Shown one piece after another: positions 23,964-26,617 of a stretch of DNA of 37,196 bases. Positions within the stretch are counted from its first letter, which is position 1. The number at the start of each line of letters is the position of its first letter. A program made the position numbers and the translations under genes. The notes beneath the pieces were generated by a model. It had not been told where the DNA came from. It searched no databases and saw only the letters and a program-made list of their open reading frames with translations. Origin of the DNA: a phage; sequence record PZ445539.1; one strand, 5' to 3'.

Positions 23964-24249
23964 TGCGCCGTTCCTCCTCCAAACTCATAACTATTTCCTC
24001 TTCTTTTTCGGTCCATCCATGAATCTCTGCGGCGAGGTCATAAACCAGAGCGCATATCGTTTTTAGTTGGAAGTGGTCCAGCTTTTCGTGATATTCAAAT
24101 AATGTTTGCGATAGACCTGCCAGTTGCTCAGCTTTGATATTCACACCCTGAATATCCTGTCTTTTCAATACGCTCATAATTACCGCCCATATGCTTTTTT
24201 CAGGTAAAGGCGAGCGATTACCTCGTAACCACAAGCCGCATAAAGGCAC
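23956..24249 (-). CDS. hypothetical protein (start uncertain)
   Basis: 97-aa ORF; alternative start at 24177. Confidence 0.4.
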   Translation of the reverse strand: MPLCGLWLRGNRSPLPEKSIWAVIMSVLKRQDIQGVNIKAEQLAGLSQTLFEYHEKLDHFQLKTICALVYDLAAEIHGWTEKEEEIVMSLEEERRNG

Positions 24250-24283
24250 GCTGTTCTGTATGCCGTTTTATCAATGATGAAAG

Positions 24284-24676
24284 TCATACGAAGCGCCTCA
24301 CCGCCAAAGAAGCGACTACCCGACCGTGAATTTTGATATCTTTCAATTCATCAGTGTTGAGGGTGAATGTTTCGTAATGATGGTTGTCAGAAATAATTTT
24401 CAACGAACCACAAATTAATGGCTCTATTCTCTTAATGAACAGGCATGGGCGGCCGAAAACCTCCATCGTATAAACGTAAATGCCAGGAGTGAGCGCACGG
24501 CCACCGCAATCAACGAACGCCACAACCTCACATGGTTCGATGGTCGGTTGCATTGAATCACCTTCCATCCGGCAGCTCTGAACGCGGTTACCAAAGTCGT
24601 TAATATTGTCTGAACCGAACAGCATTCGAGGAGTTTTTATTGGCTGATTAATCGCGATAGCATTTTGCATTTTCAT
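24284..24676 (-). CDS. stand-alone S24-family peptidase-like protein (LexA/UmuD C-terminal domain type)
   Basis: GDSMQPTI serine motif and downstream FIKRI lysine in correct order; 130 aa with no HTH; GAGGAA ribosome-binding site. Confidence 0.6.
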   Translation of the reverse strand: MKMQNAIAINQPIKTPRMLFGSDNINDFGNRVQSCRMEGDSMQPTIEPCEVVAFVDCGGRALTPGIYVYTMEVFGRPCLFIKRIEPLICGSLKIISDNHHYETFTLNTDELKDIKIHGRVVASLAVRRFV

Positions 24677-24736
24677 TTCCTCAGGGTGAGTTTGGCCCCA
24701 CCAAGAAAGGTGTTAATTAAACAATGTTAATTAATT

Positions 24737-25168
24737 TTAAATCTTGTCTGCTTGCTTACAGATGGTTTCTTGCAAGTCATCTAATTTTTCATAAACGATA
24801 GTTAGAGTACCGATAGCCGACAATTCAGGAGGCATACAATCCATAGCGTTGGATAAAGCCATTCTGCAATTGCCAATATCCGCAGACCATGAATTAAGTT
24901 GATTGGAAGTTATAATGCTTGTTGGCTCTGTAAATTCACCACACTGCTCGTTTCCTGAAATGAGCCACAGAACATCAGAATGAAGAATGTTAGCCAATTG
25001 GATTAACTGGTCAGCAAACGGAACAGTTTTCTCCGTTTCCCAGTTGTTAATGGTTTCGGTTGTTAAACCAAGATGATCAGCCAAAAAATCCTGAGACAGT
25101 CGAAGCGAAGATCTTTGATTTAATATTCTTTTGCCGATGGTTTTGGCTACGGTGATTTGAGTATTCAT
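24737..25168 (-). CDS. XRE-family helix-turn-helix transcriptional regulator
   Basis: N-terminal HTH pattern (LRLSQDFLADHLGLTTETINNWE); first gene after the OL-like palindrome; GGAG ribosome-binding site. Confidence 0.7.
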   Translation of the reverse strand: MNTQITVAKTIGKRILNQRSSLRLSQDFLADHLGLTTETINNWETEKTVPFADQLIQLANILHSDVLWLISGNEQCGEFTEPTSIITSNQLNSWSADIGNCRMALSNAMDCMPPELSAIGTLTIVYEKLDDLQETICKQADKI

Positions 25169-25210
25169 TTCATTGGCTCCGTTGTTTGCCGATGAATGAA
25201 CTTTAAGTCA

Positions 25211-25227
25211 TGCAATAACTTATTGCA
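25211..25227. promoter_or_regulatory. OL-like operator: perfect 8-1-8 palindrome
   Basis: TGCAATAAcTTATTGCA; half-site TTATTGCA recurs in the cI-cro intergenic region. Confidence 0.5.
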
Positions 25228-25320
25228 ATAACAAAACTTATTTTTCTTTTACGATTTAGTTTAATGCATTGATTTTTTTGATTAAATTTTGTTATTAAAT
25301 AGCATAGCTTACAGCTATAG

Positions 25321-25350
25321 ACAAAGAAAAAGCCGCTTAAAAGCGGCTTC
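25321..25350 (-). terminator. intrinsic terminator downstream of repressor gene
   Basis: GCCGC-ttaaaa-GCGGC hairpin followed on the minus strand by TTTTTCTTTGT. Confidence 0.6.
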
Positions 25351-25370
25351 AAAAGGTGGGGTGTTGAAGG

Positions 25371-26069
25371 TTAGAGCCTATTGTAATTGATTGATTCATG
25401 CATTATGGCTTTACCCATCACGTAAAGGTCATCTTGGTTTTCTTCCGTGATATACCATTTCTCATATGCCGGATTATCCGATAAGACTGCTAGCCTGTTT
25501 CCCTGCATCTGGAGACGTTTTAGGTGAAATGTTTTACCAAAAACAAACACATACACACCATCCGTTAGAAAGTGTCGGACGGAAATGTCTACGAAGACAC
25601 GATCACCGGAATTAAATGTGCTGGCCATGCTGTCGCCATTGACGGTCATTACTTTTACGACATCTTCACTACGATTCCCGAAAAGGGATTTTGCATGTTG
25701 AGTCGTAAACTCAATAGCGTGTAAAACCTCCACATATTCTGAAAGCATGAACGTGCCAGGCCCTGCACTCACTGCAAGGTCAAGAACCTCGACCCTGAAT
25801 ATGCCAGCGTTATCCTTTACCTCCCTTTCGGGCATGGTCTCTATCACATAGCCCTGTCTATGAGGCACATGATTTTTTCCAGTTGATAGCCATTCAGGGC
25901 TCACACCCAGCGCATTAGCAATCTCAACCAACTTACGTGTTGTGTTGGTTTTGCCTGCAACAAGACGCCAGATAGCTGGTTGCGAAACCCCAACTTTCAT
26001 CGCTAATTCTGCCTGCGTAAGGCCTGCGTCAACCATCGCTTTTTGAAGACGATCTGAGAATGTGTTCAT
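25371..26069 (-). CDS. cI: CI-like repressor (HTH plus S24 autopeptidase domain)
   Basis: Start placed at internal Met (MNTFSDRL...) to clear the operator region; N-terminal HTH; C-terminal S24 domain with GDSM serine and later KRLQ lysine; divergent from cro. Confidence 0.85.
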   Translation of the reverse strand: MNTFSDRLQKAMVDAGLTQAELAMKVGVSQPAIWRLVAGKTNTTRKLVEIANALGVSPEWLSTGKNHVPHRQGYVIETMPEREVKDNAGIFRVEVLDLAVSAGPGTFMLSEYVEVLHAIEFTTQHAKSLFGNRSEDVVKVMTVNGDSMASTFNSGDRVFVDISVRHFLTDGVYVFVFGKTFHLKRLQMQGNRLAVLSDNPAYEKWYITEENQDDLYVMGKAIMHESINYNRL

Positions 26070-26083
26070 ACCAATAAGCCTAT

Positions 26084-26170
26084 ACAAAAAGTTATTAAGT
26101 GGCAAATACGATAAGTTATTGCATAAAGTTATTCAAGGCTATACTCTTTCCCTATGTTCAATAACTTTTG
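26084..26170. promoter_or_regulatory. OR-like operator/promoter region between cI and cro
   Basis: Four copies of core AAGTTATT/AATAACTT (26089, 26113, 26126, inverted at 26160), one forming ..AAGTTATTGCA matching the OL palindrome half-site. Confidence 0.5.
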
Positions 26171-26178
26171 GTATTTTT

Positions 26179-26406
26179 ATGATCAATCAACATGTCAAGA
26201 GAGCTATCGATATTCTCGGCGGCCAAGCTGCATTAGCAAGAGCGTGCGGGGTTACTCAACCGGCTGTATTTCGCTGGCTTAATGGTAGCCGGGTTAAGGC
26301 TGATCATGTCATGTCCATTGTTAAAGCTACTGGTGGCGAAGTTAAAGCCTACCAGATCCGCCCAGACCTTCCAGATACATTCCCGCACCCGGGTAATGGG
26401 GTGTGA
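26179..26406 (+). CDS. cro: Cro-like HTH regulator
   Basis: About 75 aa from the internal ATG; HTH pattern (GGQAALARACGVTQPAVFRWLNG); divergent from cI. Confidence 0.7.
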   Translation: MINQHVKRAIDILGGQAALARACGVTQPAVFRWLNGSRVKADHVMSIVKATGGEVKAYQIRPDLPDTFPHPGNGV

Positions 26407-26407
26407 C

Positions 26408-26617
26408 ATGTCACATCCAATCACTACCGAAAACCAAGTTAAGCCCTTGGATATCGATTATCGCGATCCGCGCGGTGTGATTGTGCATGTCACCGGCTGG
26501 AATCGTGATAAGCAGCAGGTGTACTTCACCAGGCAGAATTACCCGCATGAATGCATGCAGCCTGTTTGGAAGTTCCAACAATATTTTACGAAGGTCTCGG
26601 AGGCGCAAAATGCGTGA
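26408..26617 (+). CDS. hypothetical protein (occupies cII-like position)
   Basis: 69 aa from ATG 26408; no recognisable motif. Confidence 0.35.
   Translation: MSHPITTENQVKPLDIDYRDPRGVIVHVTGWNRDKQQVYFTRQNYPHECMQPVWKFQQYFTKVSEAQNA

Follow-up and report, generated by a model that had tools for sequence, protein, structure and literature searches.

The question raised by this locus is whether a phage that already encodes a complete CI repressor carries, directly beside it, a second repressor divided between two polypeptides. The window, by which we mean the whole stretch that was analysed, comprises 37,196 nucleotides (nt) of phage DNA (sequence record PZ445539.1), and the two open reading frames (ORFs) concerned lie on its minus strand, at 24737-25168 for a protein of 143 amino acids (aa) and at 24284-24676 for one of 130 aa. 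A preliminary description, made from the sequence alone, placed the ORFs at these positions and proposed that an XRE-type helix-turn-helix (HTH) protein and a stand-alone S24 peptidase together form a split LexA/CI-type repressor or some other dedicated pair. Both minus-strand ORFs were found as described, and the two domain identities were confirmed in a hidden Markov model check, in which both proteins passed the Pfam cut-offs. The partnership itself did not survive the comparison with related loci: the HTH protein, hereafter HTH-143, and the peptidase are independent accessory genes, not one repressor split in two. The peptidase lacks the defining features of a LexA/CI repressor and of UmuD/HumD, and is a CI-derived, free-standing S24 domain carried on a mobile early-left cassette. 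Positions 24200-25400 match Escherichia phage LMessi (PP925823), a 37,205-bp phage isolated on E. coli, with 100% identity, and we use this name for the phage throughout.

We compared 89 loci that were seeded with the peptidase, from 9 species-representative genomes and 80 viral contigs. The gene directly upstream of the peptidase encodes a 97-aa protein, and no HTH, in 48 of these loci, as against 36 with the HTH protein; 5 loci carry other cassettes, namely a pair of 70-aa and 72-aa proteins, a set of 129, 61 and 72 aa, or a 140-aa protein. When the loci were found through the 97-aa protein, the peptidase stood downstream in 44 of 46. Among loci found through the C-terminal domain of HTH-143, we observed the peptidase in 43 of the 45 of HTH type, the other two (L281 and L282) cleanly lacking it, and it was absent from all 12 loci in which this C-terminal domain is joined to an alternative N-terminus. 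In loci of the P0151 type an alternative N-terminus occurs together with the peptidase, and one locus has the 97-aa protein followed by a C-domain protein, with no peptidase. Every combination of peptidase, HTH and alternative genes occurs.

Many of these loci are closely related, so that the counts do not represent independent events. Our conclusion is therefore drawn from the existence of all combinations and from a recombination boundary, not from the proportions. This boundary is seen between LMessi and Fostie, the peptidases of which are 96% identical but stand behind different genes; the DNA homology ends about 43 nt upstream of the peptidase gene. Alleles are exchanged as well, as a 75%-identity HTH allele accompanies the ~55% peptidase clade in some loci and the ~90% clade in others. 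In addition, the closest full-length relatives of the peptidase have N-terminal domains that are not close to HTH-143, and nothing in the sequences points to a derivation of both genes from one repressor gene.

These observations bear directly on the proposal of a two-polypeptide repressor, in which the S24 peptidase would cut the linker of HTH-143 at Cys76-Gly77, in the manner of ImmR/ImmA (ICEBs1) or DdrO/IrrE (PprI; Deinococcus) with a serine peptidase as the enzyme. The order of repressor then protease, with a fixed spacing of 66 nt, was found in 19 of 19 HTH-seeded loci with readable context, and the fact that 43 of the 45 HTH-type loci in the viral set carry the peptidase also speaks for such a pair. 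The linker (...NEQ-C-G-EFTEP...) is predicted to be disordered, and its QC-GEF is similar to the sites of UmuD (QC-GF) and LexA (A-GEP); 10 of 12 HTH-type homologues have the Cys-Gly, and DdrO and ImmR are among the weak fold matches of HTH-143. Against this, the HTH partner is missing from 53 of the 89 peptidase loci, HTH and S24 clades recombine freely, and the N-termini of the closest full-length S24 relatives give no sign of a common origin. The dipeptide is Tyr-Gly in P0128 and is absent from P0149 despite an S24 gene downstream; it is retained in L281, where HTH-143 has no S24 gene beside it, and neither Ala-Gly nor Cys-Gly is conserved in the alternative upstream proteins. Cys76-Gly77 is neither invariant nor confined to loci with a peptidase; it was not adopted as the peptidase substrate, and its cleavage in trans is kept as a minor rival only. 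In ImmR/ImmA and DdrO/IrrE, as here, the gene of an XRE HTH protein with a C-terminal dimerisation-type domain lies ahead of that of a small protease, but the likeness is superficial: their proteases are COG2856/M78 metallopeptidases in conserved pairs, whereas that of LMessi is a serine peptidase of family S24 and its pairing with the HTH gene is facultative. Altogether, we regard a two-polypeptide repressor or dedicated pair as improbable.

HTH-143 is, as judged from its sequence, a complete two-domain protein of its own. It exceeds the Pfam cut-offs for HTH_19 (32.0 bits against 30.2), HTH_3 (26.9 against 23) and Phage_CI_repr (29.5 against 22). Its HTH spans about residues 8-75, with a flexible linker at about 63-87, which holds Cys76-Gly77, and a C-terminal helical hairpin at 88-143. 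The AlphaFold2 model (predicted local distance difference test, pLDDT, of 62) falls below 50 over residues 63-84 and shows long helices at 88-111 and 120-142. In the alignment, the C-terminal domain is the most conserved part of the protein, with two invariant Cys; the invariant positions are W94, D97, G99-N100-C101, D110-C111 and G120-T-L-T123. This helical domain probably dimerises. Foldseek returned generic XRE HTH domains, including 434 Cro, the N-terminal domain of P22 c2, HipB and C-proteins, and PADLOC gave only generic HTH matches (CapH, RmrA). The models of DicA and RstR match only the HTH part and stay below their cut-offs (49 bits against 101 for DicA), so that membership of the DicA family was rejected. 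With TTETINNWE, the recognition helix is unlike those of CI and Cro, and we therefore expect a different DNA specificity. The associated HTH allele has been recorded on at least 1000 contigs.

The C-terminal domain of HTH-143 (24737-24910) is itself a mobile module, which elsewhere is found on a non-HTH N-terminus (phrog_27579 / phrog_6882). Phages Fraca and SaltyDalty have this form, as do several prophages (L195, 2273-2695; L196, 2261-2683; L198, 2870-3301).

Concerning the peptidase, sequence, fold and active site agree in making it a member of the S24 family (LexA/CI/UmuD, clan SF). It passes Pfam Peptidase_S24 (PF00717) with 29.8 bits against a cut-off of 23.3 (E = 5.4e-7), and phrog_6201 matches it over its full length (E = 9.5e-39). 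Compared with the C-terminal domain of LMessi's own CI, it shows 33% identity over 99 aa (E = 3e-11), with Ser41 of the GDSM motif and Lys82 in register with the CI dyad (130-aa numbering; Ser39 and Lys80 in the 128-aa form described below). The preliminary description had noted a serine in GDSM and a downstream lysine, and would have been refuted by the lack of a conserved dyad; in the alignment of 48 cluster representatives the dyad is conserved, the Ser being present in 47 and the Lys in all of them. The motifs GDSMQPTI and KR are nearly invariant in the family. Sequence and profile searches of the PDB with the peptidase gave no meaningful matches, from which we conclude that the family is divergent. 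At the level of structure, the AlphaFold2 model (pLDDT 73) has a beta-rich core and an N-terminal segment of 30 residues at low confidence. The best Foldseek matches in the PDB are LexA C-terminal domains (probability 1.00, template-modelling score, TM, about 0.5-0.55), among them the RecA-bound LexA structure 8s7g, and the best matches among viral structures are C-terminal domains of CI repressors (TMq about 0.6, E = 1e-6).

The PF00717 match covers only profile positions 34-116 of 116, against 6-116 for the neighbouring CI. Profile positions 1-33 are uncovered, no conserved (A/C)-G was found in residues 1-36, and hence no Ala-Gly or Cys-Gly self-cleavage site was detected there. The F-G motifs in the N-terminal arm were considered as non-canonical self-cleavage sites and rejected, as the Gly19 and Gly27 columns vary. 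On these grounds the protein corresponds to the C-terminal domain of a repressor after cleavage, beginning just past the point where the self-cleavage site would lie. Domain model searches found no HTH domain in its 128 aa, so that the names given to it in databases, 'CI-like repressor' and 'helix-turn-helix transcriptional regulator', mislead. The GenBank names of both genes follow from the PHROG labels, HTH-143 falling in an HTH family labelled 'CII-like regulator'.

The length of the peptidase had to be revised. At the first ATG of the 130-aa ORF, relatives have ATT, ATA or GTG, whereas the ATG at the third codon is universal among them and suitably spaced from a GAGG Shine-Dalgarno sequence. 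The true gene is therefore probably 24284-24670, encoding 128 aa. Most database homologues are also 128 aa long, and the length holds at 128-129 aa over 55-100% identity.

Thus the peptidase resembles the C-terminal domain of lambdoid CI and LexA in its fold and in the motifs of the Ser-Lys dyad (GDSM ... KR). Unlike these repressors, it has no DNA-binding domain, no linker and no Ala/Cys-Gly loop; it is encoded by a separate gene under PL and not PRM, and is not bound to one immunity type. In a HMMER scan of 1.8 billion representatives, only about seven peptidase clusters were found at E < 1e-28, and the next matches were HTH+S24 repressors of 200-260 aa, aligned through their last ~95 residues. 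It follows from this comparison that the family derives from the tails of CI-type phage repressors and not from UmuD. An unrelated stand-alone S24 protein (P0172, 132 aa) has a C-terminal domain near-identical to that of an HTH+S24 repressor (P0174, 216 aa), which suggests that free S24 domains arise repeatedly through truncation.

A UmuD-like protein was among the possibilities raised at first, and in its current form this explanation would make the peptidase a pre-processed UmuD' analogue, of the type of P1 HumD or N15 gp26, that partners host UmuC in translesion synthesis. UmuD', HumD and N15 gp26 are likewise natural stand-alone S24 domains, about 115-130 aa in length, whose N-terminal arm is flexible, and P1 HumD is, according to the P1 record in which humD is annotated, a phage-encoded form that is 'already processed'. 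The size of about 128 aa, the start about 36 residues before the Ser as in UmuD', the flexible arm and the existence of such stand-alone proteins in phages would all fit. Nevertheless, BLAST against P1 HumD gave no similarity (E = 0.41), the UmuD model NF007621 (PRK10276) gave no match at E 0.01 while the phage CI does match it, and the nearest relatives of the peptidase are CI-type repressors. We found no LexA box (CTGT-N10-CAG) in 24200-25400, the four elsewhere being at chance level, and no umuC-like or other Y-family polymerase gene in the genome annotation. The peptidase thus differs from UmuD'/HumD in having no detectable sequence relationship, no LexA box and no polymerase partner, and a UmuD'-like function is very unlikely. 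P1 hxr-humD was also considered as a precedent for an XRE+S24 operon, and discarded since the P1 record shows humD alone behind a LexA box.

Among other small peptidases, the nickel superoxide dismutase (NiSOD) maturation protease SodX (TIGR02754) and minimal clan-SF peptidases share with this protein the arrangement of a small stand-alone Ser-Lys peptidase, which in their case cuts a separate substrate in trans. The match of the peptidase to SodX is weak (E = 0.0038; 17.7 bits against 63) and there is no NiSOD gene. PADLOC gave no match for the peptidase, and the defence-system role that had been suggested for the pair was therefore dismissed.

The peptidase gene is a mobile cassette: it stands behind at least 5 different upstream genes and beside at least 10 CI types, and it is absent or frameshifted in similar phages. 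Prophages that carry it were found in Enterobacter, Citrobacter, Kluyvera, Salmonella, E. coli, Lelliottia and Kosakonia. One peptidase clade of at least 80% identity adjoins at least 10 CI clusters that are less than 70% identical to each other, which disposes of an immunity-specific partnership of the peptidase with CI. Close homologues of the present prophage region were also observed in two assemblies labelled as Bacteroidota, a contig labelled Chitinophaga (L037) and one labelled Chryseobacterium (L041); these probably reflect contamination or mis-binning.

It could be asked whether such an ORF is only a decaying relic, the functionless 3' half of a former second repressor gene. The repeated origin of truncated S24 ORFs (P0172 versus P0174) is in line with this, as is the state of the gene in some phages: in CharmingMan (L003, 4080-4474) a frameshift splits it into two annotated 'CI-like repressor' coding sequences (CDSs), and Fraca and SaltyDalty have no peptidase gene. 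However, from 2665 pairs we obtained a median ratio of nonsynonymous to synonymous substitution rates (dN/dS) of 0.089, and of 0.075 when only the N-terminal arm was counted; this low ratio shows clearly that the protein is functional and under strong purifying selection. The start codon, the Shine-Dalgarno sequence, the length and the catalytic motifs are conserved, and the gene is spread over many genera and CI types. Of all the explanations weighed here, a relic is the one we find hardest to credit.

The position of the two genes in the phage is summarised in the following list of features, in which coordinates refer to the window.

24180-24287, minus strand: conserved 35-aa ORF, annotated as CDS0022
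24284-24676, minus strand: S24 ORF as originally listed, 130 aa
24284-24670, minus strand: stand-alone S24 peptidase gene as refined, probably 128 aa from the conserved ATG, with Ser39-Lys80
24671-24722, minus strand: putative leader or junction element before the peptidase gene, conserved and carrying the GAGG Shine-Dalgarno sequence
24711-24734, no strand assigned: direct repeat TGTTAATTAA-N4-TGTTAATTAA, between the HTH stop codon and the leader
24737-25168, minus strand: gene of the XRE-family HTH protein, 143 aa
25203-25296, minus strand: OL/PL region, with operator-like sites common to the cI-cro intergenic region
25329-25350, minus strand: intrinsic terminator of the cI (PRM) transcript, a 9-pair stem (5 G-C) followed by TTCTTTGTCT
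25371-26069, minus strand: CI repressor gene, 232 aa from the annotated ATG, in an ORF that reaches 26105
26081-26176, no strand assigned: OR operators in the cI-cro gap, of the same sequence family as in OL
26179-26406, plus strand: Cro-like repressor gene, ~75 aa from an internal Met of ORF 26062-26406

LMessi is a temperate phage of the HK97-like lambdoid siphovirus type, and its nearest relatives are Hendrixvirinae (Cronobacter phage ENT39118, Aeromonas phage AsXd-1 and Escherichia phage Fraca). Its genes follow the lambdoid order: integrase, early-left genes, S24 and HTH genes, OL/PL, terminator, cI (leftward), OR, then cro and replication genes (rightward). The bona fide repressor next to the pair, announced in the preliminary description, was recovered in the product of 25371-26069, which matches Pfam HTH_3 (4.6e-10) and Peptidase_S24 (2.5e-16) as well as phrog_4 (1e-55), contains an ...AVSAGPG... 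site, GDSM and the Lys, and is annotated as a CI-like repressor. The location of the pair behind the cI terminator (25350-25329, minus strand) and an OL-like element was also upheld, as both the terminator and sites related to OR were found. The 14 nt at 25210-25223 recur, exactly in reverse complement, as an OR site at 26111-26124, and for this reason we place an OL-type operator set, as predicted from the DNA, ahead of the HTH gene. Three operator-like 16-mers, AATA(A/C)N-N4-GTTATT, lie in OL/PL at 25214-25229, 25227-25242 and 25281-25296, and such 16-mers recur in OL and in the cI-cro intergenic region. Since the cI terminator and operators shared with OR precede both genes, the position of the HTH and peptidase genes is that of the first two genes in the leftward (PL) operon, which CI represses.

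A consensus promoter scan found none in the OL/PL region nor between the HTH and S24 genes. Reading the sequence by eye, we noted a weak sigma-70 candidate for PL, formed by TTGCAA (25231-25226), a spacer of 17 nt and TAAAGT (25208-25203). Rfam searches around PL and the leader gave no put, nut or riboswitch at the gathering threshold or at E < 1.

The Cro-like protein matches YdaS_toxin (2.2e-18) and P22_Cro (4.6e-7), related prophages hold homologues of 74-76 aa, and its recognition helix appears to resemble that of CI. The GenBank annotation of LMessi misses this gene and calls hypothetical ORFs in other frames (26154-26282 and 26282-26617); the cro-like gene is in the frame of 26062-26406 on the plus strand, with its start probably at 26179, and a DUF4222-type gene probably comes next (region 26062-26617). 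The annotation also contains a 49-aa 'hypothetical protein', CDS0019 (25203-25352, minus strand), which lies wholly over the cI terminator and the OL operators and is probably not a gene.

The short region between the two genes has conserved features of its own. Upstream of the peptidase, a leader of ~45 nt, ACACCTTTnnnGGTGGGGnnAAACTCACCCTGAGGAAATG, is conserved whichever gene precedes. It can fold into either of two hairpins that exclude each other; in one of them CCUU pairs with the GAGG of the Shine-Dalgarno sequence, and the minimum-free-energy fold of the leader sequesters GAGG. In an alignment of 25 variants, 95-97% of the cells in these hairpins are paired, and covariation was not significant. 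The S24-less locus L281 keeps the leader in front of the 35-aa ORF. From its sequence, this element may gate translation or mark a recombination junction. The repeats of TGTTAATTAA at 24711-24734 are the only exact copies in the genome and are conserved in HTH-type loci; they are a candidate protein-binding site, possibly for the HTH protein.

Behind the peptidase, the next gene of the operon is a 35-aa ORF, MTFIIDKTAYRTACLYAACGYEVIARLYLKKAYGR, the ATG of which shares bases with the stop codon of S24 (ATGA). Practically all related loci have a homologue of 35-38 aa, whether or not they carry the peptidase. This ORF contains AAC-GYE and was considered as a dedicated substrate; the idea was given up because the residue ahead of the Gly is not constant (C, S, A, F, Y, N) and the ORF is also present in loci that lack the peptidase. 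The 97-aa protein (...FDIHAKL...EFAIYERIDNYFVLVDFFKSYDEAC...), the commonest upstream neighbour of the peptidase (for example at L005, 3132-3425, and L002, 4542-4835), has no HTH and no match in Pfam, PHROGs, PADLOC, NCBIfam or PDB. As hhalign against the HTH family gave a probability of 0.2% in addition to these empty searches, a cryptic HTH protein or analogue of HTH-143 was excluded, and we describe it as an orphan family at the N-gene position.

What, then, could the peptidase do? The two are accessory genes at the head of the PL operon, and one of them encodes a free-standing S24 domain derived from a CI tail. Tentatively, and at somewhat less than even odds, we favour the view that this domain would act in trans on a LexA/CI-type target common to different immunities. 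As the pair lies behind OL operators and a terminator, its two proteins would be made only after infection or derepression. Action in trans is proposed because the active site is intact but the protein's own substrate loop is missing, and the target would have to be one that phages of different immunity share. The most plausible mode would be either intermolecular cleavage of LexA/CI-family proteins or a mixed-oligomer effect on them, by mimicry of their C-terminal domain. Host LexA, the phage's own CI or the CI of a resident prophage could be targets, and the outcome would be a derepression reinforced without RecA. HTH-143 would be an independent early regulator with its own DNA specificity.

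Both modes have reported antecedents. Kim and Little are said to have observed in 1993 that C-terminal fragments of LexA and lambda CI cleave in trans, and De Anda, Poteete and Sauer reportedly found in 1983 that an excess of the C-terminal fragment of P22 c2 induces a prophage through mixed oligomers. In addition, UmuD consists of a catalytic and dimerisation domain only and cleaves intermolecularly (PMC9926225). A second RecA-related switch, as had first been suggested for the two proteins together, or an anti-repressor-like function, is possible for the peptidase alone.

A narrower form of this view, which we consider unlikely, is that of an 'enzyme-only' protease of LexA type, devoid of a substrate loop, that would cleave host LexA and/or heteroimmune and own CI in trans, independently of RecA.

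A different explanation, somewhat less improbable than the enzyme-only form though still doubtful, is that the peptidase is a decoy or modulator of activated RecA. A free S24 domain would bind the groove of activated RecA without being consumed and compete there with LexA, CI and UmuD; it would damp the co-protease activity early after infection or induction, and so shield newly made CI while lysogeny is being established, or keep competing resident prophages from being induced. Without the rest of the protein, S24 C-terminal domains (lambda CI 101-236, UmuD) do bind the same elements of the RecA filament groove (PMC9926225), the fold matches to the LexA C-terminal domain include the RecA-bound 8s7g, and RecA is conserved across hosts, in keeping with the indifference of the gene to the CI type. 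Accessory proteins encoded near cI that tune RecA-mediated cleavage also exist, for example 434 Hex (PMC3564112). More generally, 434 Hex, DinI-like proteins and GIL01 gp7 are comparable as small accessory proteins of immunity regions that tune RecA- or LexA-dependent switching (PMC3564112 and PMC4551915), but none of them is an S24 domain. Moreover, Hex is made from PRM in the lysogen, whereas the peptidase gene, behind OL/PL, should be silent there and could not stabilise an established prophage as Hex does. The region of the cleavage site is missing from the peptidase, and a pure binder would need no near-invariant GDSMQPTI and KR, yet HumD shows that such residues can persist. Because these catalytic motifs are so strongly conserved, we rank a peptidase or C-terminal-domain mimic first and the decoy second.

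Several points nevertheless speak against a trans-acting peptidase or mimic. Trans-cleavage by S24 domains is slow in vitro. P1 HumD, a truncated UmuD'-like protein that needs no cleavage, likewise keeps its Ser and Lys, and for this reason the conservation of the dyad is suggestive of catalysis, not proof of it. With only 33% identity between the peptidase and its own CI, and with C-terminal tails that differ, mixed dimers of the two do not seem to be obviously favoured. The 30 N-terminal residues are conserved yet modelled with low confidence. Since CharmingMan, an isolate that is presumably viable, carries a frameshifted copy, any role of the peptidase is dispensable for growth. Finally, in the literature on these phages, on stand-alone prophage S24 proteins and on trans-cleavage, we found no account of this peptidase family.

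To our knowledge, free-standing S24 domains have so far been understood only as UmuD/UmuD' mutagenesis factors. The peptidase described here represents a separate lineage, which comes from phage repressor tails and travels on a mobile cassette that opens the early-left operon in many Enterobacteriaceae prophages. For the annotation of such phages, the names 'CI-like repressor', 'CII-like regulator' and 'helix-turn-helix transcriptional regulator' can suggest two or three repressors per phage. Were the peptidase to cleave or sequester proteins of LexA/CI type, or to occupy RecA filaments, it would represent a new phage-encoded modulator of SOS and induction, and the first natural case of the 'repressor as enzyme' trans-cleavage that was shown in vitro in the 1990s. 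Should it prove to be an enzyme-only protease, it would provide HK97-like phages with a portable, immunity-independent trigger that switches on SOS, or that locks in or cross-induces prophage derepression once PL fires.

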